Source: an uncultured Thermoplasmata archaeon (GTDB taxonomy: Archaea > Thermoplasmatota > Thermoplasmata > RBG-16-68-12). From it: 15,490 nucleotides of DNA. Below the pieces are notes generated by a model. That model searched no databases, had not been told where the DNA came from, and saw nothing but the letters and a program-made list of their open reading frames with translations. Made by a program: the position numbers and the translations under genes. The DNA lies in the NCBI GenBank assembly GCA_963768855.1, contig CAVYJM010000005.1, positions 1-15,490 on the forward strand, written 5' to 3'. Numbering within the stretch: position 1 is the stretch's first letter; each line of letters begins with the position of its first letter. Positions 1,080 to 15,490 of this stretch are shown one piece after another.

Positions 1080-1086
1080 CACCTCC
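1080..1086 (-). promoter_or_regulatory. Shine-Dalgarno site GGAGGTG
   Basis: Minus strand reads GGAGGTG-GGCGGG-ATG(1073). Confidence 0.65.
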
Positions 1087-1938: not shown

Positions 1939-1970
1939 GATCCCGTCGCCGTCCCCGTTCGCCTGAGACC

Positions 1971-1978
1971 TATATTAA
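1971..1978 (-). promoter_or_regulatory. Archaeal-type TATA box TTAATATA for the PKD gene
   Basis: An isolated AT-only octamer in GC-rich DNA, 32 nt upstream of ATG 1938. Confidence 0.65.
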
Positions 1979-2077
1979 CCCGGGAGGGCGGATTCGCAGG
2001 GTGATAACAGGAACCCGCGGGGGCGTACGGCCTTGGGCGTCCTGGAACGCGATCCCCGCGATAAGAGCGCAGATTCC

Positions 2078-2084
2078 TTCAAGT
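2078..2084 (+). promoter_or_regulatory. Putative weak TATA-like box TTCAAGT for 2119..2556
   Basis: Lies about 35 nt upstream of ATG 2119. The same TTCAAG core occurs on the minus strand upstream of 10857. Non-consensus. Confidence 0.3.
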
Positions 2085-2118
2085 CCCCCCTGGGCCCTTC
2101 CCCCGGGGAGGGAATCGC

Positions 2119-2556: not shown

Positions 2557-2614
2557 CGGCCTCCCCGGGACCGCCCTCGAGGCCGGCTCTGACGGGCGTC
2601 TCGTTCGCTGGACA

Positions 2615-2653
2615 GGGGCACAATGGGCCCAGCATTTCCTTAGGCCCTGCCCC
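2615..2653. other. Stem-loop (11 bp with a 4-nt bulge) between convergent genes; possible terminator or RNA element
   Basis: GGGGCA(2615-20) pairs with TGCCCC(2648-53); bulge CAAT; GGGCC(2625-29) pairs with GGCCC(2643-47); 13-nt loop. No U-tract. Confidence 0.35.
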
Positions 2654-2861
2654 GATGCCTTGCTGACCTGGCCGTTCGACCCTCAGGTGACCGGACGGAT
2701 CGCAGCGATTGTGCTCGCCGGGATCGTGGTCATCCTGCGGCGGGCGGCTGTGCATGTGTTCCCAGGTCGGTCACCTCGCCCGGCGGCCTTCCCGAGATTC
2801 TCAGCGGACACTCACCTGGAAGGGAATGCATGGAGGATGCAAGGCTCGCGGGCGAGGCGGT

Positions 2862-4112
2862 TTAGGGACGTTCGGCGGAGCGGGCCGCGAGGACCTTCTC
2901 GATGAAGTCGAGCTGGGTGGGGATGTACCCAGCCACGAGGGTCCGGGCCTTCATGCCCGCTGCCTCGCGAACACGCGTCCGCAACACCGGGTCGGCGAGG
3001 AGCTTCCGGATGGCCTCCGCCAGGCCCTCGGGCTCACCTGCCTTCACGAACAAGATGTCGATGCCGTCAACGAACTGGTCCGGCAGGGAGCCGACCGGTG
3101 TCGCGATCACCGGGACCCCTGCAAGCATCGCCTCGTACACGACGGTCGGACTCCCCTCCGTGTACGAGGGGAGGAGCAGGAGGTCCGTCGACGCGAGGAG
3201 CGCGGGGACGTCGTCATGCGGGACGGGTCCGCGGATCGAGACCCGGGGCGCGAGGGAGCGCCGCGCGATTTCCGCCCGGAGCTCAGACTCCTGGCTTCCG
3301 CCTCCCACGTACTCGAGTCCGATCCGGGGCGAGCCGGAGCGCGGGAGCCGCTCCATCGCGTCGAGTATGTCGAAGATTCCCTTCTCGCGCTCGAGGCGGC
3401 CAAGGTAGCGGACCATCCAGGATGCCCGATCTCGCTGGCCGGACTCGCCGACCGCGCGGGGTGGGAACCGTCCGGCGTCCACGAAGGAGGTCGATGTCTC
3501 GATGAGCTTGGCCCCGCCCTCTCGGGCCGAGGAGGCAAGAGCGCGGTTCACCGCCAGGACGCCGTCCGCGGCTCGGAACACCCGCCCCTCAAGCCACCGC
3601 ACGGCATGGCGCGTTGCTCCGGCCGCGGTCGACCCCCGTAGCTTCTGACCAACGGTCTCCTCGATGGACCCGGCGAGGAACACGAAGACCGGGATCCCTG
3701 TGAGCTTGCCAGCGACGACGGTCGGGAGGCCGGTGACGACCGTGTCGTCCGCGCGGAGGATGTCGACGCGATCGCGGCGGAGGGCCCGCAGGAGCGCCAG
3801 GTACAAGGCCGCCATTTCGAAGCCCATGCGAAGCGGACGGTCCAGACGGTTCACTCCTCGCGGGAGAGGGATGCGGTGCAGGCGCAGCTCCTTCGAGGCG
3901 ACCGAGGCCTCATGGAGGGCGACCCCGTGCGGCGCGAAGACGAATACGTCGACGCTCCTGAGGTTCTCGATCAGCCGTCGTGCCTCATCGAGGACGACGC
4001 CTGGGAACGAACCAGACGGCGAGATCGAGCTCGTGCCGGCGATGCCCAGCGCGCGCCCGCGGGCCCGCGACTCCAGCCGGTTTCGCTCGGAAGGATCGGG
4101 TGGGGACGCCGT
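2862..4112 (-). CDS. GT4 (GT-B fold) glycosyltransferase, ~416 aa; start codon non-canonical or uncertain
   Basis: The C-terminal domain has YLGRLEREKG and LPSYTEGSPTVVYEAMLAG (EX7E). The track starts it at GTG 3854, but the frame is open to 4235 and encodes a GT4-like first strand and helix upstream (RALGIAGTSSISPSGSFPGVVLDEARRLIENLRSVDVFVFAPHG) with no ATG/GTG/TTG. The start is placed provisionally at an in-frame ACG (4112), 4 nt after GGGGGTGA. Confidence 0.85.
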   Translation of the reverse strand, partial: TASPPDPSERNRLESRARGRALGIAGTSSISPSGSFPGVVLDEARRLIENLRSVDVFVFAPHGVALHEASVASKELRLHRIPLPRGVNRLDRPLRMGFEMAALYLALLRALRRDRVDILRADDTVVTGLPTVVAGKLTGIPVFVFLAGSIEETVGQKLRGSTAAGATRHAVRWLEGRVFRAADGVLAVNRALASSAREGGAKLIETSTSFVDAGRFPPRAVGESGQRDRASWMVRYLGRLEREKGIFDILDAMERLPRSGSPRIGLEYVGGGSQESELRAEIARRSLAPRVSIRGPVPHDDVPALLASTDLLLLPSYTEGSPTVVYEAMLAGVPVIATPVGSLPDQFVDGIDILFVKAGEPEGLAEAIRKLLADPVLRTRVREAAGMKARTLVAGYIPTQLDFIEKVLAARSAERP

Positions 4113-4116
4113 GGTC

Positions 4117-5352
4117 TCACCCCCCGGCGTTGCGCGGCGCGGCCCGGACGGTCTCGTATGCGCCCGCGGCGACCTTCGCGATCCGGGACCAGGAGTACTC
4201 CCGCGCGAGGAAGGCGAGCCCGTTCGACGCTCTTCTCATCCGGAGCGTCTCGTCCGTGAGCAGGCTACGAAGCGTGGCCGCAATCTCCTTCGGATCGTCG
4301 CGGACGCAGCGCCCCATGTCCTCCCGAGCCAGGTCCTCGGCCCACGAGCCCGATCCGGTCGCGACGACCGGCAAGCCCGCCGCAAGATAGTCGTACATCT
4401 TCCCGGGGACGGCGTAGGTGCGTGAGGCGGAGTCCGCCCAGGGTACGATCCCGACGTGGCAGGTGGCCAGGAACCGGAAATACTCCGTGTCGGTGGGGAA
4501 CCAGAAGAATTCGAGACGTACCCCCCGCTCGTGGGCGAGGCGCCGCAGCCGGCGGCGTCCGGGTCCGCGGCCCGTTGCGAGCAGCACGGTCTCAATGCCG
4601 CTCCCCCGGAGGAGGGCGCAGGCGTCGAGGAACGGTTCGAGCCGCACCCATGAGGTGACGATGCCCGAGTACACGAGCCGGAAGGGAGGCGGCGGCGACG
4701 AAGGGCCGGAGACCCGGGCCGTCGCCCCGGTCGGGACGACCCAGGTCCGCGTGTGGTCGGCGCCGAGTTGCTCGACAAAGTAGTCGCGCATCTCCCGGTC
4801 CGGTACGAGGATGCCGTCGGCGTCCGCCGCGATCCGCGCGTCGAGGTCGCGGGCTTGGTGCTCCACCGCCGATCCGGCAGAGGCCAGCCCGTCCTCCACG
4901 AGCTCGGCGGCCCAGACGTTGTGCAGGTCCGCCACGACCGGCATCCCGAGCTCCTGCTTCACGGAGCACGCTGCCGCGGCGGCCACCTGCTGCTCGGCTT
5001 GGAGGAGGTCGAGGTGCAACCCGCCCGCGCGGGCAACGACCTTGCGTGCCAGCCCCTGGATCTCGGCTTGGAGCCGCGCCGGATTCCGAAGGGCGAGGCG
5101 GCGCACCGACTTCCACCGGTAGAACGCATCGACCGCGATGCGCCGCGCGGTGCTCGAGACCCGCTGTCCGGGGGAGGTCGCGAGGGATGCGAACTCCCCC
5201 GAATCCCACCACGCGGGTCGGCCCGGGTAGGGGGAAAGGAGGACGGAGTCCACGGAGTTCGTTCGCAGGCCCCGCGCGAGGCCCACCACCCGCTTCGTCG
5301 TCCCCAGGCTCTGACCCGGCGGATGCGTTGTGAGAATCCCGATCCGGGTCAT
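4117..5352 (-). CDS. GT4 glycosyltransferase, WbuB-like subtype (411 aa)
   Basis: N-terminal MTRIGILTTHPPGQSLGTTKRVVGLARGL and VVADLHN. The C-terminal AVPGKMYDYLAAGLPVV is the P-x-K-x-x-E/D-Y variant replacing canonical EX7E. SD GGCGGTGA lies 6 nt before the ATG. Confidence 0.9.
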   Translation of the reverse strand: MTRIGILTTHPPGQSLGTTKRVVGLARGLRTNSVDSVLLSPYPGRPAWWDSGEFASLATSPGQRVSSTARRIAVDAFYRWKSVRRLALRNPARLQAEIQGLARKVVARAGGLHLDLLQAEQQVAAAAACSVKQELGMPVVADLHNVWAAELVEDGLASAGSAVEHQARDLDARIAADADGILVPDREMRDYFVEQLGADHTRTWVVPTGATARVSGPSSPPPPFRLVYSGIVTSWVRLEPFLDACALLRGSGIETVLLATGRGPGRRRLRRLAHERGVRLEFFWFPTDTEYFRFLATCHVGIVPWADSASRTYAVPGKMYDYLAAGLPVVATGSGSWAEDLAREDMGRCVRDDPKEIAATLRSLLTDETLRMRRASNGLAFLAREYSWSRIAKVAAGAYETVRAAPRNAGG

Positions 5353-5403
5353 GACTTGTCACCGCCGTCCCCGGCGAGCCGCGGCGCCAGCATTCCCCAT
5401 TGG

Positions 5404-5409
5404 TTTAAG
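5404..5409 (-). promoter_or_regulatory. TATA-like box CTTAAA for the GT4 pair 5352->2862
   Basis: Isolated AT patch about 50 nt upstream of ATG 5352, in the short gap after the methyltransferase stop. Confidence 0.5.
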
Positions 5410-5428
5410 CGTATCGCTCGACGGCGCC

Positions 5429-6283
5429 TCATGGGTTCGAGGCGGCATCCCGGAGGCGGGCGATGACCATCACGTTCTGGCTCGCATCCGGCACGCGGAT
5501 GAATCGTTCGTCGAGGCGTGCCTGGATCCTCGCGCACCACGACGCAAGCCAGCCGATGCCCCGCCAGCGCGCGACGACCTCGAGCTCGGAGAGATAGGGC
5601 AGTGAGAAGCCCACGCCATGGACCGTCTCCACCTCGAACCCGTGCGATCGCAAGGTCTCAACCAGGTACGTCGTCGTGTAGAGCCGGTGCGGGACGTTCC
5701 CGTGATAGAGCCGGTAGTCGTAGTATCGCAGGCCCCGGGCCTTGGCGACTCCGATCGCGAGGTAGAACGGCAGGAGCGGTATCTCCGACCATCGCGCGGC
5801 TCGCTGGGCCGCCTTCACCACGCGCCGGGCATGGCGGGGCTCGCGTTTCGCCCACCTCTGGACCCGCTCCGAACCGAGCGCGAGGATGAACGGGGGATAG
5901 CGGAGTGCGGGGACCGTGATGATGTAGCGCCGCGCGGCGAGACGTTCCAGTTCGGAGAGCGCCTTCGCTTCGTCCGGGACGTGCTCCACGACCTCCGTCG
6001 CGACGACCGTGTCGATCGCGTGCGCTCGCAACGGGAGATGTTCCGCGTCCGCTTGCAGGAGGCCCACGGACTCGGATGGCACGGTCGCGCGATCGATCCG
6101 CCGGAGTTTCGTGCGGTTCAGGTCGCAGCCGACGATCCGCTCGAACCGGGCGGAGGAACCGGCCATCTCGCGTTCGAGGTTCCCCTCCCCGCATCCGAGA
6201 TCGAGGAGGCTCCGCGCCCCGAGTTGGTCCAACGCCCTCAGGATAGCGGCATACCGTCTCCGGTGCGTCTCCTCGAGGAGCAT
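5429..6283 (-). CDS. Class I SAM-dependent methyltransferase (Methyltransf_11-like, ~284 aa)
   Basis: Motif I LLDLGCGEG, VGCDLN, LQADAEHLPL, DTVVATEVVEHVPD and IITVP. The track ORF (to 6877) overlaps the divergent GT4 gene, so the start is set at ATG 6283, about 40 nt downstream of AATTAAG. ATG 6376 is an alternative. Confidence 0.88.
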   Translation of the reverse strand: MLLEETHRRRYAAILRALDQLGARSLLDLGCGEGNLEREMAGSSARFERIVGCDLNRTKLRRIDRATVPSESVGLLQADAEHLPLRAHAIDTVVATEVVEHVPDEAKALSELERLAARRYIITVPALRYPPFILALGSERVQRWAKREPRHARRVVKAAQRAARWSEIPLLPFYLAIGVAKARGLRYYDYRLYHGNVPHRLYTTTYLVETLRSHGFEVETVHGVGFSLPYLSELEVVARWRGIGWLASWCARIQARLDERFIRVPDASQNVMVIARLRDAASNP

Positions 6284-6320
6284 CGTCGCGTGCGTCGGCT
6301 CGCAGTCGTCCACGTAGGAG

Positions 6321-6329
6321 CGCTTAATT
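6321..6329 (-). promoter_or_regulatory. TATA-like box AATTAAGCG for the methyltransferase
   Basis: The only AT patch in the divergent gap, about 40 nt upstream of ATG 6283. The TTAATT core could also be read on the plus strand. Confidence 0.45.
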
Positions 6330-6448
6330 CGGTCCGCTTCGGCGGATCGCGGGGGAGGAAGCAGCAAGGAGTGCATCCGAGAGCCGCGTTCCCGGAATGA
6401 ACATTGCGGCACCGCCAACGGTCCCCGGCTCCCATGGAGGCCGGGGGC

Positions 6449-6460
6449 GAAACCTCTATG
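6449..6460 (+). promoter_or_regulatory. Putative BRE/TATA-like element GAAACCTCTATG
   Basis: Ends 27 nt before ATG 6488, similar spacing to CTTTATG before ATG 11366. This would give a leaderless transcript. Confidence 0.35.
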
Positions 6461-6487
6461 CCGGGCATGGGGGTTCCGTGCGCGTTC

Positions 6488-7675
6488 ATGCCCGAGGATG
6501 CAACCGACCTGCTGGCCTTCGTGTCCAGCTTCTCCCACTTCGCCGGGCCGAACAACCCCGTCCTCGACCTGGGGAACCATCTGGTCTCGGCGATGGGGGT
6601 CCGGTTCGCCGTCGTCACGACGCGCAACCCGGTGGACCCGGAGTTCGCGCGGCGCGTGAGGTTCCCCGTGTACCGCGACCTCTCCGGTACCTCGAGCTCC
6701 ATGGGTGGACGCCTGCTCCGCGGTCCCACGAACGTCCATCGTGCGAGGGCTTCCCTGGCTCAACACCGGCCCAGGCGGACAATCGTCTTCTCGAGCCTGG
6801 ACACCGCGTTCGAGGTGTCGCGAGCGGCGCGAGGTCCCGTCCTCCTGGGGTACAACGTCCTCGGCAACATCCCCCACGGGTCGTGGGGGCGGCGATTCGG
6901 TCTACGGTATTGGCGTCCGGCGAGCTGGCGCAACCCGGTGTACGAGGGTCTCGACCGCCTCGCTGCACGAACCGTCGTCTCGGGCATCCTCGCGCACAGC
7001 CGCTACCAGGAGAGCCTGTACCGAGCGATGGGGATCCCTGCCGAACGGATCCGCGTCGTGCCCCACACCATCGACTTCGCGCGGCTGGATGCGGAGGCGG
7101 CCACTGCTCCCCCGGGTCCGTCGTCCTCCGACGAAGGCCGGCCGACCGTCCTCTTCATCGGACGGCTCGAGCCCGACAAGGGCGTCGTTGAGTTGCTGCG
7201 AGCCGCCGAGCTCGCCTCGAGGGAGGTGCCGCTCACGTTGCAGATCATCGGCACGGGCCGGCTCGCCCGCGCGGTCGCCGAGGCCCGGGCGCGTGCGCCC
7301 TCCACGCTCCGGGTCGAGACGTCGCACGACGTTCCCGTGACGGAGCTCCTGGGGCGGATTCGAGCTGCCGCCGTCGTCGTGATGCCCTCCTGGGTCGAGT
7401 TGTTCGGGATGGTCGCCCTCGAGGCGATGGGGCTCGGGAGGCCCTTGATGGCTTCCCGCCACGGTGGGGTCTCCGAGATCATCCGGGACGGCGTGGACGG
7501 GTTGCTCATCGAGCCGTTCGACACGGACGGGTTCGCGGCGTCCCTGCGTAGGGTGCTTGGAGACCCCGCGCTGCGCGAGCGACTCGGAAACCGAGCTCGA
7601 GAGCGGGTCGCGGCGGAGTACGAAGTCCATGTCGTGGCCCCCCGGTTCCTTCGGGCCTTGGAGGAATTGGCGTGA
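6488..7675 (+). CDS. GT4 glycosyltransferase (~395 aa)
   Basis: VLFIGRLEPDKG, MPSWVELFGMVALEAMGLG (EX7E) and HGGVSEIIRDGVDGLL. Start trimmed from 6404 to ATG 6488 (MPEDATDLLAFVSSF...), which directly precedes the first beta-strand. The stop overlaps the next GTG (GTGA). Confidence 0.9.
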   Translation: MPEDATDLLAFVSSFSHFAGPNNPVLDLGNHLVSAMGVRFAVVTTRNPVDPEFARRVRFPVYRDLSGTSSSMGGRLLRGPTNVHRARASLAQHRPRRTIVFSSLDTAFEVSRAARGPVLLGYNVLGNIPHGSWGRRFGLRYWRPASWRNPVYEGLDRLAARTVVSGILAHSRYQESLYRAMGIPAERIRVVPHTIDFARLDAEAATAPPGPSSSDEGRPTVLFIGRLEPDKGVVELLRAAELASREVPLTLQIIGTGRLARAVAEARARAPSTLRVETSHDVPVTELLGRIRAAAVVVMPSWVELFGMVALEAMGLGRPLMASRHGGVSEIIRDGVDGLLIEPFDTDGFAASLRRVLGDPALRERLGNRARERVAAEYEVHVVAPRFLRALEELA

Positions 7676-9690
7676 AGCCCCTGCGGCCGGAGGCGGTGAC
7701 CGCCGCGCTGAGTCTGGCGGTGTGCCTCGCCTTCCTCGGCTCGCTGGCCACCCCAGGCTTCGGAATTGTCCGCGCCCTCGCAGGGGCGCTGATCCTCACG
7801 TACCTCTCGGGTCTCTCGATCCGAGCGTTCCTCCGAGTCGCCTTCCCGCCGAAGGTATCTCGCCCCCTGTGGACTCCCGCGGGGATCGCCTTGGACTTCA
7901 TCACGAGCTTCGCGCTCCTGGTCATCCTGTCCATGGCGCTCGCCCTCACTTTCCTCTTCTGGGCGTCCACGCTGACCGGCCTGGTCGTCGCTCCCTGTAT
8001 GGCGCTCGATGTCGGGACGATCGTGTGCTCGAGGCTCCGTCCTGCGGCGACCTCGACGCACCGGCCTTCTCGCGGAATACCCGTTGCGGTCGCGGCCCTC
8101 GTCGGCGCCTCGGGAATCCTTTTCGTCCTGTTCCGGTGGCCCAACCCGTACCCGTCGATCAGCGGGTGGGACCTGAACCCGGCTCTGGCCTCGGTCGGCT
8201 GGACCCTCAATCATCACGGGTTTGGCTTCGTCCTCTGGCCTCCGTTCCCCGCTTCGGCGCTCGTCCCGTACCCCGCCTCCTTCAACGACTTCATCGCGGG
8301 CTACAGCCTCGTCCTCGGAGTCGACCCTCTCTCCATCTTCTACTACGGCGTCCTCGTACTGCTCCTAGCCTACAGTCTCGGCTTCTTCGCGATCGCGTAC
8401 CGCCTTTCGAGCCGCGTGGATTCCGCGCTTCTCGCGACCTTGGCGATCCTGTATATAGGGACCGCCCTCCCGGAGACGGTCCGGACCCCGCTCTTCGTCA
8501 CGATCGACATGCTCGGCCAGCTCGTCTTCCTCGGCCTCTTCCTCTTCTTCCTTGACGATGAGGGGAGCCTGGGCCGGCGCCGCGCGATCCTCCTGCTCGG
8601 CTCCGTGTTCCTCGTGTACTGGTACTTCTACGAGCTCGTCGTAGTGACCCCGTTCCTCGCGTTCATGCTGGGCGGCTCGTTGCGGTCGGCCCACGCCCAG
8701 CGTCCGGTCCGTTGGTTCCGGGGGACCCTGGTGATCGTCCTCCTCGGGGTCGTCGGCGTCTCACTCGCCGCGACGGTGTTCGTGCCGTCCCTGGAAGCAA
8801 ACCTGTCCGCGGGCTTCCAGTTCGTGCCCAAGGTCTTCGCCCTCGTGGTGATGTACTCACCCGTCGCGCTCGTCCTTGGGTTCCTCGTCGTGTTCAATCG
8901 AGCGCACGTCCCGGAGGACCCCCCGGTGAGGGGATTCCGCGCACGGTACCTCCTCGAGTACGTTTGCGTGTACCTGATCATCTACCTGCTACCCCTCTCG
9001 GCGACCTACCGAGTCGAGTTCTACCTCCGGGCCGCCTTGGCGTTCTACCTCGCCTCGCTCCGCTTTCCCACGACGCGGGAAATGCGCGAAGCGTTCCGCG
9101 CGGTCCGCGCTCTGCTCGCGCGGCGGCGGGCCCCCCGTCCGTGGCACCCTCTTGCGCTCCAGCGTCTCGCGGCGCTCGCGGTACTCGCACTCGTGGTGTT
9201 CATGGCGGTCCTCCTGCCGTTCCAGGTCACTCAGCCGGAGCCCCACATGTCCGTGGACGAGTACCACGCCTCGGTCTGGATTCGGGACCACACCCCGGCG
9301 GACGCGTACATCGTGACGGATCCCGGGACCGGGTACGTCATCCGCGGTTTGTCGCTGCGCAATGCGTCGCTCTCCTTCCTGCTTCCGGATGGACGCGCCC
9401 CCGATGATTCGTCTCCCCTGTATTCTTACTTGCGGACGTCTCTGCACTCCATTTTCGATTCCTACTTCACCGCGCAGGCCCAGGCCCAGATCCTCGTCCT
9501 CGACTTCCCGCACGTCTACGTTGTGATCAGCACGCGGACGGTCCTCTGGGCGAGCACTCCGGCCGTATCCATCTTCGACCATCCGATCCCGGACCTGTCC
9601 CCCGCGAGCCTCCTGCCGGTCTTCGCGCCCCCCGCGTTCCAGCCCCTCTTCGTGTCGCCGACGGTGGTCGTCCTGAGCGTCAGCACGTGA
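7672..9690 (+). CDS. Polytopic membrane protein (672 aa), GT-C fold / STT3-AglB-like architecture
   Basis: About 15 hydrophobic segments. The first large loop has SGWD (8161-8172) followed by YPASFNDFIAGYSLVLGVDP. The soluble C-terminal domain begins DEYHASVWIRDHTPADAYIVTDPGTGYVI, which aligns with the AglB 'AL.WLR.NTP.DA.V.SWWDYG.WI' region but lacks WWDYG. SD GGAGG at 7660-7664; GTGA coupling to the upstream GT4. Confidence 0.8.
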   Translation: MKPLRPEAVTAALSLAVCLAFLGSLATPGFGIVRALAGALILTYLSGLSIRAFLRVAFPPKVSRPLWTPAGIALDFITSFALLVILSMALALTFLFWASTLTGLVVAPCMALDVGTIVCSRLRPAATSTHRPSRGIPVAVAALVGASGILFVLFRWPNPYPSISGWDLNPALASVGWTLNHHGFGFVLWPPFPASALVPYPASFNDFIAGYSLVLGVDPLSIFYYGVLVLLLAYSLGFFAIAYRLSSRVDSALLATLAILYIGTALPETVRTPLFVTIDMLGQLVFLGLFLFFLDDEGSLGRRRAILLLGSVFLVYWYFYELVVVTPFLAFMLGGSLRSAHAQRPVRWFRGTLVIVLLGVVGVSLAATVFVPSLEANLSAGFQFVPKVFALVVMYSPVALVLGFLVVFNRAHVPEDPPVRGFRARYLLEYVCVYLIIYLLPLSATYRVEFYLRAALAFYLASLRFPTTREMREAFRAVRALLARRRAPRPWHPLALQRLAALAVLALVVFMAVLLPFQVTQPEPHMSVDEYHASVWIRDHTPADAYIVTDPGTGYVIRGLSLRNASLSFLLPDGRAPDDSSPLYSYLRTSLHSIFDSYFTAQAQAQILVLDFPHVYVVISTRTVLWASTPAVSIFDHPIPDLSPASLLPVFAPPAFQPLFVSPTVVVLSVST

Positions 9691-9726
9691 CGGACCCGAA
9701 CCGCATCGCGCGGGCCCGAGGCCGGT

Positions 9727-10857
9727 TCACACGAGGTTCTCGTACAGGTTCTCGGTCAGCTGCCCGATGCGCGCCCAGCTGTACGAATCCTCGATGAGGC
9801 GGCGTCCCGCGGCACCCATCCGGCGCCTCATCCCTTCGTCCCTGAGGAGGGCGACGACCCTCTCGGCGAACGCGGCGAAGTCGTGGGCGGGGCGCAGGAA
9901 TCCGGTCTTGCCCTCGATGACGACCTCGGACGTCCCCCCCGTGTCCGCGGCGACCACCGGGACGCCGCAGGCCAGGGCCTCGAGGCACACGGTCGGCAGT
10001 CCCTCGATGAACGACGGGAGGACGAGGACGGAGGTCGATCGGAGAATGTCCGCCACGCGGCTGTGTTCGACCTCGCCGATGAACCGCACGTTGCCGTTGA
10101 GGTCCGCCGCGGCGGCCCGCATTCCACCCAGCATCGAGCCCGTCCCGACGACCTGAAAGATCGCTTCGGGAACCTCGCGCCGCACGAGGCGCGCGATGTC
10201 GAGGAAGGAGCCTGCGCCCTTCCACTGCTCGAGCCGGCCCACGTACGTGACGACGGGTGGGTCCGGCGCGTCTCCGTCGCGGGGCCGGAATTCCTCCGGA
10301 TCCACCGCGTTCGGAATCAGGTGGAGCTTGTCCTCTTCCACGTCGAAGACCTCGCGGCACTGCCGCAGGTCGAACTCGGAGACCGCCGCGATCGCGTCCG
10401 CGCTCTCGATCGTCCAGCGGCCGAGGGTGCGGTCGTAGAGCTTCTCCTTGAGGTAGAGCGCCGACGAGGTCTTGCGGTCCATCTCGGCGTATCGCGAGTA
10501 GGTCGCGCCGTGGATGTGGAGGACGAACGGTCTGCCCGTGATGCGGGATACGAGGGCGGCCTGGTTCGAAGTCGTGTAGACGTACGAATGCGCGTGCAGA
10601 ACGTCCGCGTCGCTCTTGGCCAGCTCACGCGTCAGGAACGTGAGCGGGTTGACGCCGAACATCAGGCCGTAGCAGCGGGTGGTGTGGATCGGAATGTGGT
10701 CGCCCATGAACTTGCGGTGGCCGTTCGGCGGGAAGTTCGGAGCGTAGAAATCGACGTCGTGGCCCCGCTTCTCGAGTTCGACCGCGAGGTTCGAGGAGTA
10801 GACCACCGAGCCGCCCGGCCGCTCGGGAAGGAACGGGGCGATTTGGGCGATTTTCAT
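9727..10857 (-). CDS. GT4 glycosyltransferase (376 aa)
   Basis: MKIAQIAPFLPERPGGSVVYSSNLAVELEKRGHDV, DVLHAHS, IPNAVD, YVGRLEQWKG and LPSFIEGLPTVCLEALACGVPVV (EX7E). Confidence 0.95.
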   Translation of the reverse strand: MKIAQIAPFLPERPGGSVVYSSNLAVELEKRGHDVDFYAPNFPPNGHRKFMGDHIPIHTTRCYGLMFGVNPLTFLTRELAKSDADVLHAHSYVYTTSNQAALVSRITGRPFVLHIHGATYSRYAEMDRKTSSALYLKEKLYDRTLGRWTIESADAIAAVSEFDLRQCREVFDVEEDKLHLIPNAVDPEEFRPRDGDAPDPPVVTYVGRLEQWKGAGSFLDIARLVRREVPEAIFQVVGTGSMLGGMRAAAADLNGNVRFIGEVEHSRVADILRSTSVLVLPSFIEGLPTVCLEALACGVPVVAADTGGTSEVVIEGKTGFLRPAHDFAAFAERVVALLRDEGMRRRMGAAGRRLIEDSYSWARIGQLTENLYENLV

Positions 10858-10924
10858 GGTGTGCCTTCTGGGGCCGATGGGGGCCTCGGACGGAGTTCAC
10901 GTGGGACTAGCGTGCGCCGAAGCG

Positions 10925-10937
10925 AACCTTGAAGGTT
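10925..10937. promoter_or_regulatory. Perfect inverted repeat AACCTT-G-AAGGTT, putative operator overlapping a TTCAAG box
   Basis: 6-bp arms with a 1-nt spacer, about 70 nt upstream of ATG 10857 on the minus strand. Confidence 0.4.
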
Positions 10938-11330
10938 GCAGGTCTGAACCCCAGTGTGCGGCACGACGGTAGCACCCCTCACTGTATTATGCATTCAAGT
11001 ACCCCCTAATAAGCCCTCGGATGTGGTATTGGGACCTCCGATTACGCGGGGTTATCTAAGAGTTTCTTGAACAATTATCGAACCAAGCGGATTTTTCTTG
11101 GCGATATCCGGTTTCGAGCCACTCGGAAGAAGACGACACCGGGTCGGAGGTCCCGGCCCGTGTCGACGAGGTCGGGCGAACCACCTGACCGCGATCGCGG
11201 AGTTCCGCTTCGAGGCGGCCTTTCGGGACGCTTCCGATCCGCACGGCCTTACGCTGATCTCGATCCCCGCGGGCACCTTAGGAACGATGTATCGCTGGCG
11301 CGCCGTGTAACGGCGGAATCGCGCCGCGAG

Positions 11331-11337
11331 CTTTATG
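11331..11337 (+). promoter_or_regulatory. TATA-like box CTTTATG for the ABC operon
   Basis: Ends 28 nt before ATG 11366; GGAGG also lies at 11353-11357. Confidence 0.5.
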
Positions 11338-11365
11338 GCGGGACCGCCCTTTGGAGGCCGCGCCC

Positions 11366-12304
11366 ATGATCGAGGTCCGGGGACTCACGAAGGTCTATAC
11401 CCGCGGGCGCGGGCAGGGCGCCAAGGCCTTGGACGGCGCGACCTTCACGGTCCCCGACAAGAGCATCTTCGGGTTCCTCGGGCCGAACGGCGCGGGGAAG
11501 ACGACGACGATCCGGATCCTGGCCACGATCCTCGAGCCGACCGAGGGCACCGCGACGGTCGAGGGCCACGACGTGCGCACGGATCCGCTCGCGGTCAAGG
11601 GCGCGATCGGCTACATGCCCGAATACCCCGGCTACTATCCCACGATGACCGCGGAGGAGCACCTCGATTACTGGGGCCGGTTCTACCACATGCCGAAGGC
11701 GGAACGGGCGAAGCGAGGCAAGGAGCTCCTCGACCTCGTCGGCCTGGGCCAGGAGCGCGCGAAGAAGGTGAAGGCCTACAGCCACGGGATGCTCAAACGC
11801 CTCGGCCTGGCGCAGGCGCTCCTTCATGACCCGCGCGTCCTGATCCTGGACGAACCCGCGGGCGGGCTCGACCCGTACGGGATCATCTTCTTCCGCAAGC
11901 TGATGAAGGACCTGAATCGCGAGGGGAAGACGATCCTCCTCGCCTCCCACATCCTCTCCGAGGTCGCCCAGACCTGCACCCACGTCGGCGTGATCGACAA
12001 GGGGAAGATCGTCGCGGTCGACACGACCGAGGCGCTCCTGTCCCGCATCGGCGGCGGAGGCGTGCGCTGCCTGATCGAGGCGCCGAGCGTCCCGGACGCG
12101 GCCCTGCGCGGCCTCCTCGACATCAGCCACGTGAAGGATGTGGTTCGCACGGACTGGGGCCTCATCGTCACGATGGACAAGGACGCCCGGGCCGCGGTCA
12201 ATGCGTTCCTCGTCGGCCTCGGCGTGCCCGTGGTGGGCGTGAAGCTCGCGGAGGTCACGCTCGAAGACGCCTTCCTCTCGCTCACGGGAGGCGGGCCGAC
12301 GTGA
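11366..12304 (+). CDS. ABC-2-type exporter ATP-binding subunit (~312 aa)
   Basis: Walker A GPNGAGKT, signature YSHGM, Walker B ILDE, H-loop ASH, and a C-terminal extension ending LEDAFLSLT typical of ABC-2/DrrA-like NBDs. Start trimmed from TTG 11351 to ATG 11366 (MIEVRGLTK). Confidence 0.95.
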   Translation: MIEVRGLTKVYTRGRGQGAKALDGATFTVPDKSIFGFLGPNGAGKTTTIRILATILEPTEGTATVEGHDVRTDPLAVKGAIGYMPEYPGYYPTMTAEEHLDYWGRFYHMPKAERAKRGKELLDLVGLGQERAKKVKAYSHGMLKRLGLAQALLHDPRVLILDEPAGGLDPYGIIFFRKLMKDLNREGKTILLASHILSEVAQTCTHVGVIDKGKIVAVDTTEALLSRIGGGGVRCLIEAPSVPDAALRGLLDISHVKDVVRTDWGLIVTMDKDARAAVNAFLVGLGVPVVGVKLAEVTLEDAFLSLTGGGPT

Positions 12305-13734
12305 GCTTCGACCCGCGGGACGTGTTCCGCGGATCGCTCATCGTCGCGGGGCGCGACCTGCGCTCGAACGCGCGCGGGCTCAAGGTCTGGATCATCTCGG
12401 GGCTCACCCTCCTGGCGATCCTCGGAGCGGCGTTCGGGATCGGCGGGCTCACGTCACAGGGACCGTCCATCGCCACCCAGTACATCCTCTGGGGGTCGGC
12501 CTACTGGACCGCGAACAACTCCACGACAGGCATCGTGGTCTGGGTCAGCGACTACCTCGGGTCACCCCGGGCCGGGCAGACCGTCGTGTTGGGGGAGCCG
12601 TTCTCGCTGGGGCAGTTCAATTCGACCTTCGTCGAACGCGCCATGATCGCGACGAACGCAACGGGATGGGCCCAGTTTTCGAACCTGACCGCGGGAAAAG
12701 TCTGGCCCGTGCGGATCACCGCGGGCGTCCTGACCTTCACCGACGGCTTCGTGATCCCGTCCCAGCGACCCACACAGAACCTGTCCGTGACGGTCAAACG
12801 GTTCGATCTCCTCGGGGACGGAGCCGCGCGGGACGTGAGCATCCACGCCATGTGGGCAAACGGGACACCCGCAGAGGGTGCGCAGGTGGCGGTCAACGGG
12901 ACCGCCGTCGGCACAACGGACCGCAATGGATTCCTCTACCACCGACTCGACGACGGGACGTGGGGACTCACGGTCGCCCTCCGCGGGGAGACCTTCCCTG
13001 ATACCGAGGTGGTCCAGCGGTCCCCGCTCGCGATCCTCCCGTTCTTCCAGGGGCCGGACGCGCTCTTGCTGTTCTTGGGGGTCGCGCTGATGGGCCTGTT
13101 CGCGCCGATCATCGCGATCGCCATGTCCTACGACGCGGTCGCAAAGGAGCGGATGCAGGGCAGCCTTGAGCTCCTCCTCGCGCGCCCCGCCTCCCGAGCG
13201 GGAATCGCGATCGGGAAGTTCATCGGGTCGTTCCTCTCCGTCGGACTCCCGATGCTCGGCGTCCTGCTCGGAGCCGTGGTCGGCGTCGCGGGGGTTTCGG
13301 GGAGGTGGCCCGACGTGGTCTTCGTCGCCGCCTTCGTCGTCGGGACCCTGGGCCTGATCGCGGTCTACGTGCTCATCATGCAGATCTTCTCGACCCTCGC
13401 AAAGTCCGCGGGCACGGCGATCCTCTCAGCCCTCGTCGTCTGGATCGTGTTCAACATCGTGTGGAACCTCGTGTTCCTCGCGGTGGAGTCGGCCTTCCGG
13501 ATCGAGGGCGGGACGCCTGCGGCCTTCACGCTCAGCACGATCACGACCCTGTTCAACCCGAACGGCGTGTACCAGCTCATGGTCACCACGTTCGTGCCCG
13601 CGTCCGCGCTGGGGCTCTTCGGCACGACGGGAGGTGGGAGCCTGCCGGACTGGGCCGGACCGGTCGCCATGGTCGTCTGGATTGCCGTCCTGCTCGTCCT
13701 CGCCGTCCTCGTGTTCCGCAAGCGGATCGTCTGA
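12301..13734 (+). CDS. ABC-2-type permease (NosY/ABC2_membrane_2-like) with a ~190-aa extracellular beta-rich insertion (477 aa)
   Basis: TM1, a large loop, then SYDAVAKERMQGSLELLLARPASRAGIAIGKFIG (the classic ABC-2 permease motif) and 5 further TMs. GTGA overlap with the ATPase stop. Confidence 0.9.
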   Translation: MSFDPRDVFRGSLIVAGRDLRSNARGLKVWIISGLTLLAILGAAFGIGGLTSQGPSIATQYILWGSAYWTANNSTTGIVVWVSDYLGSPRAGQTVVLGEPFSLGQFNSTFVERAMIATNATGWAQFSNLTAGKVWPVRITAGVLTFTDGFVIPSQRPTQNLSVTVKRFDLLGDGAARDVSIHAMWANGTPAEGAQVAVNGTAVGTTDRNGFLYHRLDDGTWGLTVALRGETFPDTEVVQRSPLAILPFFQGPDALLLFLGVALMGLFAPIIAIAMSYDAVAKERMQGSLELLLARPASRAGIAIGKFIGSFLSVGLPMLGVLLGAVVGVAGVSGRWPDVVFVAAFVVGTLGLIAVYVLIMQIFSTLAKSAGTAILSALVVWIVFNIVWNLVFLAVESAFRIEGGTPAAFTLSTITTLFNPNGVYQLMVTTFVPASALGLFGTTGGGSLPDWAGPVAMVVWIAVLLVLAVLVFRKRIV

Positions 13735-13790
13735 GCGACCGCCCGGACCGATGTCGGCCGTCCGACTTCGAGATTCGGGCCTGAATTGGG

Positions 13791-13810
13791 ATTACTATCT
13801 TAATAGTATT
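13791..13810. promoter_or_regulatory. AT-rich inverted repeat TACTAT-CTTA-ATAGTA, putative operator/TATA region for the GT2 gene
   Basis: Perfect 6-bp arms (13793-98 and 13803-08) inside a 20-nt nearly AT-only island. Confidence 0.45.
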
Positions 13811-13853
13811 CTGCCGATTATGGACCTATCGCTTCGTGAAGCGTACAATGACC

Positions 13854-13860
13854 CTTAAGA
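13854..13860 (+). promoter_or_regulatory. Second TATA-like box CTTAAGA upstream of the GT2 gene
   Basis: Lies about 47 nt before ATG 13907 but only about 20 nt before GTG 13880. Confidence 0.35.
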
Positions 13861-13879
13861 AGCACGGAGGCGCAAGTCG

Positions 13880-15490
13880 GTGTACCAGGAGACCCCGCGA
13901 TTGACGATGGAAGGCCGTTCTGTCGCGCAGCGCCGCTTTGCCAACCGCTTCTTCGTGCTGGTGCTCGCTATATGGATCGGCGCCGTTGCCATCTTCGCCG
14001 GCACGACGGTGAACTTCCGCTCCTGGATCAGCGTCCTCCAGTTCGGGCTGATGGTGTTCTTCCTGTTCAGCTTCGCAATCGTGTTCTCGAAGCGCGTCGT
14101 CTCCCTGTTCGTGAAGCCGTACCCGCTCCCCAAGCTCGACTCCCTCGCGAGGCAGCCGCGCGTCGCCCTCCTCTACACGACCATGAACGACGTTGTCCCG
14201 GACTGCGTGGAGGCGATTCGCCAGACGTACCCGGTGGACGTCTACATGCTGGATGACTCCTCGGACCCGTACAAGCGGGCCACCGTCGACGACCTGGCGC
14301 GCAAGCACGCGTTCCGGATCCTCCGCCGCCCCGAGCGCAAGGGGTTCAAGGCGGGCGCAATCAACGGCTGGCTCCGGCAGTTCGGCGTGCAATACGACTA
14401 CTTCGTCCTCCTGGACGCGGACTCGATCCTCCCGCCCGACTGGGTCGCGGAGGCATTGAAGTACGCGGAGCATCCGGAGAACCGGGACCTCGCGATCTTC
14501 CAGGGCCTCATCAACATCTGGAACACGGACCGCCCGTTCCCCCGCGCGCTCGCTGCGACGACCCTCCTCGGCCAGGACGAGTGGGAGCGTCGGGTCAGCG
14601 GTTACGTGGGCGCGGTGTTCTGCTACGGGCACAACGTCATGCTGCGCACGAAGCCGGTCCTAGAGATCGGTGGGTTCGTCGAGGACTACGTGTCCGAGGA
14701 CTTCGCGACGGCCGTGAAGCTCGCGTCGGCGGGCCACGGCTCCGTGTTCGTGCCCCTCCACACCTGGGAGGCCATGCCCGAGAACGTCCGCGGGTTCGTG
14801 AAGCGGCAGACGAAGTGGACGCGCGGGTCGATGGAGTTCTGGTCGTTCGTGCCCCCGGCCCGGCTGCCGTGGCGGAAGAAGGTCTTCCTCTACACGACCC
14901 CGATGAATCACGTGGCCTACATCACGATCATGTTCGCGATGGTCGCGGCCGTATTCGGCCGCGTCTCGACGCCCGGGGCGTTCTTCGCGTTCGGCCAGAA
15001 CCTCCTCGTCGCGCCGATCGCGTACATCTGGTCGATCAACCTCTTCCGCTTCATCATCGTCATGTCCCTCATCACGTCCGTCTTCACGGTCGCGAAGCTC
15101 GTCCAGGTGCGGCTGGGCTTCTGGCGGTACTACCGCGCCCGGACCCTGAGCAAGGCGATTGGGGCGATCATGCTCCCCCACGAGCTCCGGGCGATGCTCA
15201 TGTACCTCGTCGACCCGCGGAGGAAGTTCCCCGTGACGCCCAAGGACGAGCCGCCGATGACGATGCGGGAGATCCTCCACGTCGGCCGCGGGACCGTCGC
15301 GCTCGTCGCGGTCATGGCGGTCGGCCTCACGATGTGGAACCCCGTCGGGCTGTGGTACAACGCCCTCTGGTTCCTGTCGTTCATCACCGCCCCCTTCGTC
15401 CTCTACTACTACTGCGGCCCGCTGACCCGGCCCGCGACCGCGGCGGGCGAGGGCTCGCGCGATCTGCTTGCGGACCCGAGGATCCGGACG
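13880..15490 (+). CDS. Processive membrane GT2 glycosyltransferase, cellulose synthase (BcsA)/OpgH-like, 3'-truncated by the window edge
   Basis: Manually translated; absent from the track, open for 537 codons to the window end. Two N-terminal TMs, then LLYTTMND, VYMLDDS, RKGFKAGAIN, LDADS (14411-14425), YGHN, SED (14693-14701), KRQTKWTRG (14801-14827), further TMs and FPVTPK (15227-15244). Start is GTG 13880 (SD GGAGG 13866-70) or ATG 13907. Confidence 0.92.
   Translation, partial: MYQETPRLTMEGRSVAQRRFANRFFVLVLAIWIGAVAIFAGTTVNFRSWISVLQFGLMVFFLFSFAIVFSKRVVSLFVKPYPLPKLDSLARQPRVALLYTTMNDVVPDCVEAIRQTYPVDVYMLDDSSDPYKRATVDDLARKHAFRILRRPERKGFKAGAINGWLRQFGVQYDYFVLLDADSILPPDWVAEALKYAEHPENRDLAIFQGLINIWNTDRPFPRALAATTLLGQDEWERRVSGYVGAVFCYGHNVMLRTKPVLEIGGFVEDYVSEDFATAVKLASAGHGSVFVPLHTWEAMPENVRGFVKRQTKWTRGSMEFWSFVPPARLPWRKKVFLYTTPMNHVAYITIMFAMVAAVFGRVSTPGAFFAFGQNLLVAPIAYIWSINLFRFIIVMSLITSVFTVAKLVQVRLGFWRYYRARTLSKAIGAIMLPHELRAMLMYLVDPRRKFPVTPKDEPPMTMREILHVGRGTVALVAVMAVGLTMWNPVGLWYNALWFLSFITAPFVLYYYCGPLTRPATAAGEGSRDLLADPRIRT

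Follow-up and report, generated by a model that had tools for sequence, protein, structure and literature searches.

A strain-specific glycan cassette encoding a predicted GT-C glycosyltransferase in an uncultured Thermoplasmata archaeon

We read the window analysed here (the whole of the 15,490 nt contig C5 of a Thermoplasmata MAG) as one allele of what is probably a hypervariable surface-glycan locus in an uncultured population, an explanation to which we assign a probability of about 0.6. Its conserved core would consist of the glycosyltransferase gene GT4c, coupled translationally to the gene for a GT-C-fold membrane glycosyltransferase, together with GT4d and a sugar methyltransferase, while GT4a and GT4b would be allele-specific additions. 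The cassette GT4s and the methyltransferase would build a dolichol-linked glycan, the presumed donor, which the GT-C, a non-AglB enzyme, would transfer outside the cell to a presumed acceptor. The ABC-2 pair and the BcsA-like GT2 encoded alongside are probably conserved neighbours with separate roles, outside the cassette system.

A sequence-only reading of this DNA had reported nine genes, all of which were recovered at or near the positions it gave (Table 1): four GT4 genes, a SAM methyltransferase, a 672-aa polytopic protein, an ABC-2 pair and a BcsA-like GT2. Pfam matches bore out the assignment of the GT4s (all four above the curated cut-offs for PF00534/PF13692), the methyltransferase, the ABC-2 pair and the membrane GT2. 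Two gene starts were revised. The methyltransferase most likely begins at Met168 of the 5429-6877(-) open reading frame, judging by the 167 upstream codons, which are rich in Arg, Gly and His, and by an ortholog of 292 aa. GT4c most likely starts at 6488, as its alignment to a 395-aa ortholog, the gene upstream of the GT-C in locus L002 (53% identity), begins at Met29. The genome (2.87 Mb) contains 31 PF00534 matches, four of which fall inside 8 kb of the window; a simple Poisson estimate gives P ~2e-6, with the caveat that glycosyltransferase genes tend to cluster anyway. The clustering of GT4 genes in the window is not due to chance.

Table 1. Coordinates of features in the 15,490 nt window
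Feature	Position	Strand	Evidence or remark
Conserved left flank	1-2546	.	95% nucleotide identity to C15:18678-16130, same MAG
PKD-domain membrane protein	1279-1938	-	PKD Pfam match; within left flank
Small membrane ORF	2119-2556	+	Within left flank
Strain-specific glycan cassette	2547-11315	.	GT4a, GT4b, methyltransferase, GT4c, GT-C, GT4d
GT4a, 330 aa, short N-terminal domain	2862-3854	-	PF00534, 117 bits
GT4b, 411 aa	4117-5352	-	PF13692, 48.7 bits; PF13579, 44.1 bits
Class-I SAM methyltransferase, ~315 aa	5429-6376	-	PF08241, 58.8 bits; ORF extends to 6877
GT4c, 395 aa	6488-7675	+	PF00534, 101.7 bits; ORF from 6404
Predicted GT-C-fold membrane glycosyltransferase (P0001), 672 aa	7672-9690	+	AlphaFold2 model, Foldseek, VIA
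GT4d, 376 aa	9727-10857	-	PF00534, 125.4 bits
Intergenic region, lower GC	10858-11350	.	
ABC transporter ATPase, DrrA/GldA type	11351-12304	+	PF00005
ABC-2 permease, PF12679 type	12301-13734	+	PF12679, 121.7 bits
BcsA-like synthase-type membrane GT2	13880-15490	+	PF13632, 72.8 bits

The six-gene cassette spans 8.8 kb bounded by conserved flanks and has no match elsewhere in the same genome. The left flank lies outside it, and positions 2138-2560 are kept at 79% in a second genome of the genus, G128. The right flank (11316-15490) matches at 93% identity two contigs of the same MAG, C3 and C15, which carry a different cassette. On C15, the same flanks enclose 11.8 kb of other glyco-genes, which encode an epimerase, a GT2, a GT4, a DUF2079 protein, a GT2-GtrA fusion, a 417-aa protein with GT87-like features and a C-methyltransferase. 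In G128 the left breakpoint is again near 2560, and the genes found there form a third set, which includes an 818-aa DUF6541-like polytopic protein; a GT-C-like membrane protein of its own is encoded in each alternative set. As judged from these alignments, at least three alternative gene sets occupy the same flanks, and the cassette is a strain-specific, replaceable unit. Its boundaries are mosaic, since GT4d (79% identity) adjoins the ABC pair in G128, a genome that lacks the GT-C.

Comparison of loci that encode members of the GT-C family supported the claim that the GT4s and the methyltransferase work with the GT-C. The order methyltransferase(-), GT4c(+), GT-C(+), GT4d(-) is identical in at least nine distinct metagenomic contigs (seen in L002-7, L074-80 and L087) at a GT-C identity of 42-44%. 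Methyltransferase orthologs (48-53% identity) occupy the same position in L002-L007, L074-L080 and L087, and GT4d orthologs follow the GT-C in L002-7, L074-79, L085 and L087 (59-61%), with a 93% identical ortholog in L008. At loci with 27-33% identity and 39-46% GC, too, the GT-C is flanked by GT4c-like and GT4d-like genes; this arrangement was seen in L013, L014, L017, L081-84 and L092 (39-68% GC). Across the family, the partners of the GT-C are a GT4c-like gene (adjoining it in L002-7, L013, L014, L017, L074-84, L087 and L092) and usually a GT4d-like gene too. The GT4c stop and GT-C start codons overlap in the four bases GTGA (7672-7675), and in L002, L014 and L017 the GT-C start likewise overlaps the stop of the GT4 upstream of it. 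GT4b has only weak counterparts in L013 and L081 (27-30% identity), and no clear ortholog of GT4a was found among the examined loci of the family. A lack of co-conservation in relatives therefore describes GT4a and GT4b, and not the GT4c/GT-C/GT4d core or, with it, the methyltransferase. The closest named or solved relatives of the latter are Hen1 (a ribose 2'-O-methyltransferase), MftM (an oligosaccharide methyltransferase) and a D-glucose O-methyltransferase, which suggests that it is probably a sugar O-methyltransferase.

Neither Pfam, its STT3 model included, nor NCBIfam gave a match for the 672-aa protein. Sequence searches place it in an undescribed and rare family (71 representatives among 1.84 billion proteins); the GT-C was not found in the 28 same-genus, 33 same-family and 400 same-class genomes searched. 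An AlphaFold2 model (pLDDT 91.7, pTM 0.92) predicts a GT-C fold with a core from about residue 130, preceded by four extra N-terminal TM helices, and an extracytoplasmic C-terminal domain (about residues 520-672) of the STT3/PglB/AglB type. The top Foldseek matches are STT3, PglB, AftA, DPY19 and AglB (probability 1.0), and every strong structural match is to a GT-C enzyme with a lipid donor. VIA Z scores of the full model are 14.7 to STT3B, 14.1 to PglB and 14.0 to AfAglB. The STT3 score is tied with those for PMT (14.4), DPY19 (14.3) and ALG12 (14.3), and the TM core therefore does not point to an oligosaccharyltransferase function in particular. The C-terminal domain alone scored 11.8 against the PglB domain and 11.0 against that of AglB-S2 (rmsd 2.6-3.0 Å across about 120 residues). 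Homology to AglB is weak at the sequence level: hhalign comparison with 25 Thermoplasmata AglBs is collinear at a low whole-length probability (28-43%), which for the C-terminal domain by itself is 0.2%.

The description of this protein as an AglB-like GT-C without WWDYG was thus accurate: it shares the predicted AglB-type C-terminal domain but lacks the hallmark motif, which was found in no member of its family. As the family lacks WWDYG, the sequon-binding motif, its acceptor probably differs from the canonical N-X-S/T sequon served by the genome's own AglB. The family instead conserves, in the first outer loop, a GWD motif containing D167, as well as R447/E449/R453 and [ST]DPx[ST]G (TDPGTGY, residues 549-555, in P0001), with D167, R447, R453, W536 and D550 invariant across 39 full-length members. 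Hydropathy and charge predict that D167, R447/R453 and the C-terminal domain lie outside the cell. With a probability of only 28-43%, hhalign places D167 on the EL1 Asp of AglB and R447 on its 'AARF' Arg.

A possible, though doubtful, alternative is that the GT-C is a decorating enzyme comparable to AglS, Gtr-type GT-Cs, ArnT or PMT, which would take one sugar from a Dol-P-monosaccharide and attach it to a glycan or lipid that is already displayed, rather than transferring the GT4-built oligosaccharide en bloc. Polyprenyl-P-monosaccharides are the donors of most GT-C families, the scores for PMT, DPY19, ALG12 and ArnT are as high as that for STT3, the sequon-binding motif is missing, and the C15 cassette contains a classic Gtr-like pair, in which the GT2-GtrA fusion adjoins DUF2079. 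However, neither a GT2 Dol-P-sugar synthase nor GtrA is present in the cassette or in most loci of the family, and the only GtrA domain of the genome is that of the C15 cassette. The constant partners of the GT-C are GT4s, one of them translationally coupled, and the fold of its C-terminal domain is specifically of the STT3/PglB/AglB type.

The sequence-only reading had combined all nine genes into one two-arm envelope system, in which the ABC-2 pair exports a glycan and the synthase-like GT2 makes a second polymer. The core of GT4c, GT-C, GT4d and the methyltransferase stood up as co-conserved, but the second arm and a single system did not, and we consider them improbable. The genes are physically adjacent, and the variable/conserved boundary at about 11316 is only about 35 nt 5' of the ABC ATPase start, which makes the ABC promoter region cassette-specific. 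The large extracytoplasmic loop of the permease (residues ~31-240, eight N-X-S/T sequons) is hypervariable between strains (50-80% identity versus ~100% in TM segments) and co-varies with the cassette; GT4d adjoins the ABC pair in G128 as well. Against this, neither the ABC-2 pair nor a GT2 homolog was found beside the GT-C in about 25 family loci examined, and both lie in the conserved flank, so they are not co-conserved with it; that flank is 93% identical on C3 and C15 despite the different cassette there. Synteny of ABC, GT2, VWA and Ras genes persists with other cassettes or none. The pair also differs in type from Wzm/Wzt: the permease, described earlier as of the Wzm/TagG type, matches PF12679 and not PF01061, and the best NCBIfam matches of the ATPase (98.7% aa identity to the C3 and C15 copies) are drrA and GldA, each under its cut-off. 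The GT2 occurs across Thermoplasmata MAGs (42-90% identity) without the ABC pair, which adjoins it only in the closest relatives. It is cut by the contig end about nine codons before the stop (the full-length C3 copy has 546 aa), carries DDS 125, DAD 179, SED 272 and RQTKW 309, and has BcsA cellulose synthases as its best solved relatives (E 4e-9).

It is more improbable still that the 672-aa protein acts as a Wzy/WaaL-type polymerase or ligase in a Wzx/Wzy-like exopolysaccharide pathway. Pfam often misses Wzy proteins, and a distant long-form family member (P0045), part of a large polysaccharide cluster, has a Wzx-type flippase as its neighbour. The strong structural matches, however, are all GT-C_A (STT3, PglB, AglB, PMT, DPY19, ALG, ArnT, Aft and Emb); no polymerase or ligase is among the matches listed, which weighs against this reading and is not exclusion, and the cassette has no chain-length regulator or Wzx. 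An artefact, with C5 mis-binned or chimeric and the cassette from another organism, is very improbable: the MAG, with a contamination of 7.7%, exceeds its genus mates in size, and no independent contig bridging the 2546/2547 and 11315/11316 junctions was found, but both flanks match C15 and C3 at 93-95% identity, GC is uniform (0.674, 0.681 and 0.667), and contiguity recurs for GT4d and ABC in G128, for GT-C, GT4d and the intergenic region in L008, and for methyltransferase, GT4c and GT-C in a wetland contig.

Under the preferred reading of a lipid-linked glycan transferred by the GT-C, soluble GT4s at the cytoplasmic face would lengthen a glycan carried by dolichol phosphate, with nucleotide sugars as donors, and one sugar of this glycan would be O-methylated by the methyltransferase. 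The 672-aa protein would then move the glycan from the lipid carrier onto an extracytoplasmic acceptor, with D167 as the candidate catalytic base and R447/R453 as candidates for holding the lipid phosphate. Priming and flipping could be provided by the products of AglH-like (C6:645945) and Wzx-like (C6:636765) genes. As reported earlier, the window contains no flippase, nucleotide-sugar enzyme or canonical aglB, all of which are encoded elsewhere in the genome: RmlC is at C6:671587, and a search for the true aglB located a canonical WWDYG-containing AglB on C11.

Pfam analysis recovered four GT4 glycosyltransferases (GT4a–d), a class I SAM methyltransferase (MTase), an ABC pair and a membrane GT2 in the window, which makes up all of contig C5 (15,490 bp), in agreement with the gene calls of a sequence-only reading that had united them with an AglB-like GT-C enzyme lacking WWDYG into one two-arm envelope pathway. 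All four GT4 proteins exceed the Pfam cut-off for the GT-B Glycos_transf_1 domain (PF00534 at 40.7–125.4 bits or PF13692 at 48.7–113.5 bits), and none reaches the cut-off of an NCBIfam equivalog. The metagenome-assembled genome (MAG; 2.87 Mb in 24 contigs, 93.6% complete, 7.7% contamination, GC ∼66%) has 31 GT4-domain matches, four of which fall inside 8 kb here (P ∼2e-6 by a simple Poisson estimate). The MTase features only generic class I methyltransferase domains in Pfam, and its nearest named relatives are the sugar or ribose O-methyltransferases Hen1, MftM and glucose O-MTase. Two gene starts are probably internal to their open frames: the first 167 codons of the MTase frame are rich in Arg, Gly and His and its ortholog has 292 aa, so the true gene is most likely 5429-6376, while GT4c most likely starts at 6488, since its alignment with a 395-aa ortholog begins at Met29. 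A further frame at 3-1127(+) was rejected as a gene because it is Arg-rich, matches no family and is less similar to its C15 copy in amino acids (89%) than in nucleotides (95%). As had been noted from the sequence, the window encodes no flippase, NDP-sugar enzyme or AglB; counterparts are found on other contigs of the MAG, including Wzx-like, AglH-like and RmlC genes on C6 and, answering the suggestion that the true aglB be sought elsewhere in the genome, a canonical AglB with WWDYG on C11.

Features of the window (contig C5) and of related loci, with the basis of each assignment
Feature	Contig	Position	Strand	Basis or remark
PKD protein	C5	1279-1938	-	left flank
GT4a	C5	2862-3854	-	Pfam
GT4b	C5	4117-5352	-	Pfam
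Class I SAM methyltransferase ORF	C5	5429-6877	-	Pfam
GT4c ORF	C5	6404-7675	+	Pfam
GT-C P0001, 672 aa	C5	7672-9690	+	no Pfam or NCBIfam match
N-X-S sequon (LRNAS) of P0001	C5	9361-9369		N564 and S566
GT4d	C5	9727-10857	-	Pfam
ABC ATPase	C5	11351-12304	+	Pfam
ABC-2 permease	C5	12301-13734	+	PF12679
Outer loop of permease	C5	12391-13020		residues ∼31-240
Membrane GT2	C5	13880-15490	+	Pfam
VWA-domain protein	C3	4142-6136		directly 3′ of GT2
Ras/Roc-family small GTPase	C3 (L030)	7076-7780		
Ras/Roc-family small GTPase	L073	4027-5112		same-genus genome G128
818-aa polytopic protein	L073	12540-14996	-	same-genus genome G128
Wzx-like gene	C6	636765		
AglH-like gene	C6	645945		
RmlC gene	C6	671587		
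AglB match	C11 (L001)	184636-185829	-	open frame ∼180000-189000

Comparison of C5 with the rest of the MAG by blastn revealed a central cassette between two conserved flanks. The left flank (1-2546) corresponds to C15:18678-16130 at 95% identity and the right flank (11316-15490) to both C15:4337-166 (92.6%) and C3:1-4164 (93.3%), and the cassette (2547-11315) has no match in the rest of the MAG. Between the same two flanks, C15 carries 11.8 kb of other genes (4338-16129, L029): an epimerase, a GT2, a GT4, a 793-aa DUF2079 protein, a GT2-GtrA fusion, a 417-aa polytopic protein whose GT87-like features are a lead only, a 346-aa single-TM protein and a C-methyltransferase (PF08484/PF08421). Evidently the MAG merges two strains at this locus, and part of its estimated contamination probably stems from this. 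The same-genus genome G128 has the left flank (to ∼2560) and the GT4d-ABC segment in common with the window, and between them it encodes a subtilase, an epimerase, a GT2, an 818-aa DUF6541-like polytopic protein and a 376-aa protein. The site holds at least three alternative gene sets, each with its own GT-C-like membrane protein, and cassettes have been replaced at this locus. Contigs of several relatives end within or just ahead of the ABC permease, as is expected of a site that varies within populations. Most of the genome's other GT4 genes are concentrated in two large regions, C15 26-82 kb (11 GT4s, past the left flank) and C6 636-686 kb (nine GT4s, in the company of the Wzx-like, AglH-like and RmlC genes), so the variable cassette appears to lie at the edge of a far larger glycan-gene region.

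The 818-aa protein of G128 (contig C199) lies at the equivalent position, has no Pfam match and is not detected by the P0001 profile; its Atlas look-alikes (DUF6541, DUF6077 and DUF2298) are the structural neighbourhood of P0001. Wetland metagenome contigs that are 90–95% alike but fragmentary include none that spans the 2546/2547 or 11315/11316 junction, and their shares are too small to indicate a habitat. One of them (run X1, record 2) is collinear with MTase-GT4c-GT-C except at window 6359-6427, where 66 unrelated letters take the place of the 67-nt divergent MTase/GT4c intergenic stretch.

The ABC-2 pair and the synthase-like GT2 belong to the right flank. Their strain copies are nearly identical (98.7% for the ATPase, 97–98% for the GT2), and the order ABC permease, GT2, VWA protein, small ORF and Ras-like GTPase is kept in the closest relatives. 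Across Thermoplasmata there are GT2 orthologs (42–68% identical) that are not accompanied by the ABC pair, with close relatives in MAGs of Thermoplasmata, Methanomassiliicoccales or Sysuiplasmataceae, and no ABC or synthase-like GT2 homologs were found beside the GT-C family in the other family loci examined. The permease matches PF12679 rather than the Wzm-type PF01061, and the best NCBIfam families of the ATPase, DrrA and GldA, both score under cut-off. The pair thus differs from Wzm/Wzt glycan exporters in its permease domain, its DrrA/GldA-like ATPase and its position in a flank, and its earlier interpretation as a glycan exporter finds no backing in domains or in the other GT-C loci. The proposal of a single two-arm system is not supported, because the pair and the GT2 are conserved flank genes that do not accompany the GT-C family in the other loci examined; the over-inclusive annotation is corrected here by leaving both out of the system. 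The GT2 itself matches PF13632 at 72.8 bits and reaches no NCBIfam cut-off; its best solved relatives are BcsA cellulose synthases (E 4e-9), and it retains DDS, DAD and SED motifs with RQTKW in place of the final QxxRW. It may be a lipid glycosyltransferase, as a weak GT21 match would suggest.

Eight N-X-S/T sequons lie in the outer loop of the permease, which alone diverges strongly between the strain copies (blocks of 30 residues are 50–80% identical, whereas the TM segments reach ∼100%) and may be under diversifying selection or co-vary with the neighbouring cassette. The VWA gene next to the GT2 is syntenic in the closest relatives, and in different genomes, genes for small GTPases of the Ras/Roc family are found near the locus on both of its sides.

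Gene-neighbourhood comparison divided the proposed system: GT4c, the GT-C and GT4d, often with the MTase, recur together, whereas the ABC pair, the GT2, GT4a and GT4b do not, the last two having no consistent counterparts in GT-C family loci. At least nine distinct metagenomic contigs share MTase(-), GT4c(+), GT-C(+) and GT4d(-) in identical order and orientation (GT-C 42–44% identical, partner genes 48–61%, 58–62% GC), and in one lineage (L003 and L007) rmlC, rmlA, rmlD and rmlB directly adjoin this group. At more distant loci (27–37% GT-C identity, 39–68% GC), GT4c-like and GT4d-like genes still flank the GT-C, with MTases in some, and a distant long-form member adjoins a Wzx-type flippase within a large polysaccharide cluster. 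The upstream GT4 overlaps the GT-C start codon in the window (GTGA, 7672-7675) and also in L002, L014 and L017. Judged by this recurrence, GT4c/GT-C/GT4d(/MTase) constitutes a conserved module.

The GT-C at the centre of the module, the membrane protein P0001, belongs to a rare family. Word-indexed protein searches retrieved only four relatives, and an exhaustive profile HMM search of 1.84 billion proteins was needed to obtain 71 representatives, of which 29 score E < 1e-30. Ten members were looked up and all derive from metagenomes or MAGs, the only one with an organism name coming from a Thorarchaeota MAG. The family was not found in 28 same-genus, 33 same-family or 400 same-class genomes, and a profile scan of genome contigs gave no family match. 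Pfam searches of 39 full-length members (E ≤ 0.01) returned nothing except one chance-level match; in particular, PF02516 (STT3) was matched by neither P0001 nor these 39 members at this threshold, compared with 64.6 bits for the genome's AglB. A PDB sequence search with the family profile placed bile-acid transporters at E 0.3–0.7, which is chance level, and relatedness to these was rejected. P161, D167, R447, R453, W536 and D550 are invariant in the 39 members. Most of 24 members checked feature GWD and [ST]DPx[ST]G motifs, the latter conserved ∼30 residues past the last TM helix, with GWD missing in several of the most distant ones. WWDYG is present in none of these 24, compared with all 25 Thermoplasmata AglBs checked. 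Lacking both PF02516 and WWDYG, P0001 falls outside GT66.

Also in the outer domain, N564 and S566 are near-invariant and form an N-X-S sequon, which may serve as a glycosylation site conserved in the GT-C itself or as a functional motif. Two long-form members, P0045 (1058 aa) and P0073 (954 aa), come from 63,137-bp Logan contigs, perhaps one and the same (L016), where their surroundings form a polysaccharide cluster that includes a Wzx-type flippase; this suggests paralogous expansion of the family in some lineages.

An AlphaFold2 model of P0001 built from a 66-sequence alignment (pLDDT 91.7, pTM 0.92) was compared with solved structures. At E ≤ 1e-3, Foldseek gave 26 PDB matches, every one a GT-C enzyme, headed by STT3, PglB, AftA, DPY19 and AglB, with probability 1.0 to STT3/AglB/PglB and also to 3vu0. 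In an independent search with VIA-align, the first ten ranks are likewise all GT-C enzymes (Z 12–14.7), led by the tied values of STT3B (14.7), Pmt4 (14.4), DPY19 and ALG12 (14.3), PglB (14.1) and AfAglB (14.0). The GT-C core of the model starts at about residue 130, behind four extra N-terminal TM helices. On its own, the C-terminal domain matches that of PglB (3aag_B) at Z 11.8 with an rmsd of 2.6 Å over 120 residues, and that of AfAglB-S2 (3vu0_A) at Z 11.0, the rmsd to PglB/AglB C-terminal domains ranging from 2.6 to 3.0 Å. The model thereby indicates that P0001 has a GT-C fold and that its outer domain is of AglB type, and the phrase ‘WWDYG-less AglB-like GT-C’ in the sequence-only reading proves apt as a description of shape.

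The first outer loop (EL1, 156-218) is modelled as two short helices and contains the invariant D167. Hydropathy, charge and the model helices together place the D167 loop, the R447/E449/R453 helix end and the C-terminal domain on the outer face, so that conserved acidic and basic residues are predicted to face outward. In hhalign comparisons with the 25 Thermoplasmata AglBs, P0001 is collinear over ∼450–500 columns at a probability of only 28–43%; at that level D167 pairs with the EL1 Asp of AglB, and R447, located where a late TM helix ends on the outer face, with the Arg of the AglB ‘AARF’ motif. When the C-terminal domain is compared by itself with that of AglB, there is no sequence signal (hhalign probability 0.2%). 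The only indications that TDPGTGY would be the residue-for-residue counterpart of WWDYG are its position after the last TM helix and the ranges aligned by VIA (model 529-672 with PglB 436-713).

P0001 accordingly resembles STT3/AglB/PglB (CAZy GT66, PF02516) in its fold and in its C-terminal extracytoplasmic domain, and differs in having [ST]DPx[ST]G instead of WWDYG, in its four additional helices and in occurring in a genome that already has a canonical AglB. Over its full length (residues 1-672, N-terminal extension included), its best neighbours among predicted models are DUF6077 (TM 0.70), DUF2206 (0.69) and DUF6541 (0.66), with STT3 lower at 0.56, and these three are also its top language-model look-alikes. 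Their Pfam models are not reached by any P0001 family member at E ≤ 0.01. DUF6077 and DUF6541 occur mostly in Actinomycetota and Chloroflexota and DUF2206 mostly in Methanobacteriota. We know of no function for the three, and a literature search on DUF2206, DUF6077, DUF6541 and DUF2079 yielded no publication.

In the cytoplasm, GT4 enzymes use nucleotide sugars to elongate lipid-linked glycans, and GT-C enzymes take polyprenyl-phosphate-linked donors and act outside the membrane. Given this established behaviour, the GT4s and MTase of the module would assemble a methylated dolichol-linked glycan, which P0001 would hand to an extracytoplasmic acceptor. A serious alternative, although an unlikely one, is that the GT-C is a decorating enzyme that adds a single sugar. 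En-bloc transfer is favoured over decoration on three grounds: GT4s are the partners that stay constant, the family is accompanied by neither a Dol-P-sugar synthase nor GtrA, and the type of outer domain is that of oligosaccharyltransferases. The sole GtrA domain in the genome belongs to the C15 allele. That WWDYG has been lost speaks against a standard sequon as the acceptor, which could instead be another protein site, O-linked residues, a membrane lipid or a lipoglycan. Taken to its full extent, the en-bloc reading would make the P0001 family a new class of oligosaccharyltransferase, an STT3 relative in which WWDYG is swapped for another motif and which transfers GT4-built, methylated dolichol-linked glycans en bloc to a non-canonical acceptor; we consider this unlikely, at a probability of roughly 0.2. 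If it is true, the family would represent the enzyme type that has been postulated to act in AglB-independent archaeal glycosylation. Its AglB-type outer domain, different motif and coexistence with a normal AglB make P0001 a concrete, testable candidate for such a transfer step.

One such route is the ‘low-salt’ N-glycosylation pathway of Haloferax volcanii (Agl5–Agl15), in which a short glycan is built on dolichol phosphate by a cluster that includes dTDP-rhamnose genes, and whose oligosaccharyltransferase, distinct from AglB, had yet to be identified as of 2013 (PMC3892788). By description, the module may be likened to this pathway as a possible second, AglB-independent route with a cluster of its own, and with rmlABCD beside the core in L003 and L007; the host phyla differ. 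In bacteria, Gtr-type systems combine a GtrA flippase, a GtrB GT2 and a GT-C that works outside the membrane in serotype-like variable modules (PMC11127046). The C15 allele resembles these in layout, its DUF2079 protein (a GT-C) lying divergent beside the GT2-GtrA fusion, whereas the window cassette has neither GtrA nor a GT2 Dol-P-sugar synthase and its constant partners are GT4s. For archaea, alternative gene sets at a surface-glycan locus, varying among strains and species and analogous to bacterial serotypes, are also described in a comparison of the genus Haloferax (PMC5867893). The window locus is similar in that a shared pair of flanks encloses three alternative sets, and differs in its host class, Thermoplasmata, and in that each allele has its own GT-C-type enzyme. 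With variable gene sets in archaea and GT-C modules in bacteria, the locus type as a whole is already known; what is new is the P0001 family, which combines an STT3-like fold and domain make-up with motifs of its own and a fixed GT4 partnership and has no Pfam or NCBIfam profile.

Archaeal surface glycans affect virus sensitivity, mating and environmental fitness, and to our knowledge almost nothing is known of those of uncultured soil and wetland Thermoplasmata. The locus represents serotype-like cassette replacement in this group and singles out a compact three- to four-gene module around a GT-C family that lacks a database model.

Two further observations concern possible acceptors and AglB. 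The 219-aa PKD protein of the left flank comprises an N-terminal TM helix, a PKD domain, a Gly/Asn-rich linker and a C-terminal hydrophobic segment; it is likely a surface protein and, carrying two N-X-S/T sequons, a possible glycosylation target. The AglB match on C11 sits inside an open frame of ∼2000 aa, and those of other Thermoplasmata genomes in frames of ∼2100–2400 aa, so that AglB seems to be unusually large in this class.
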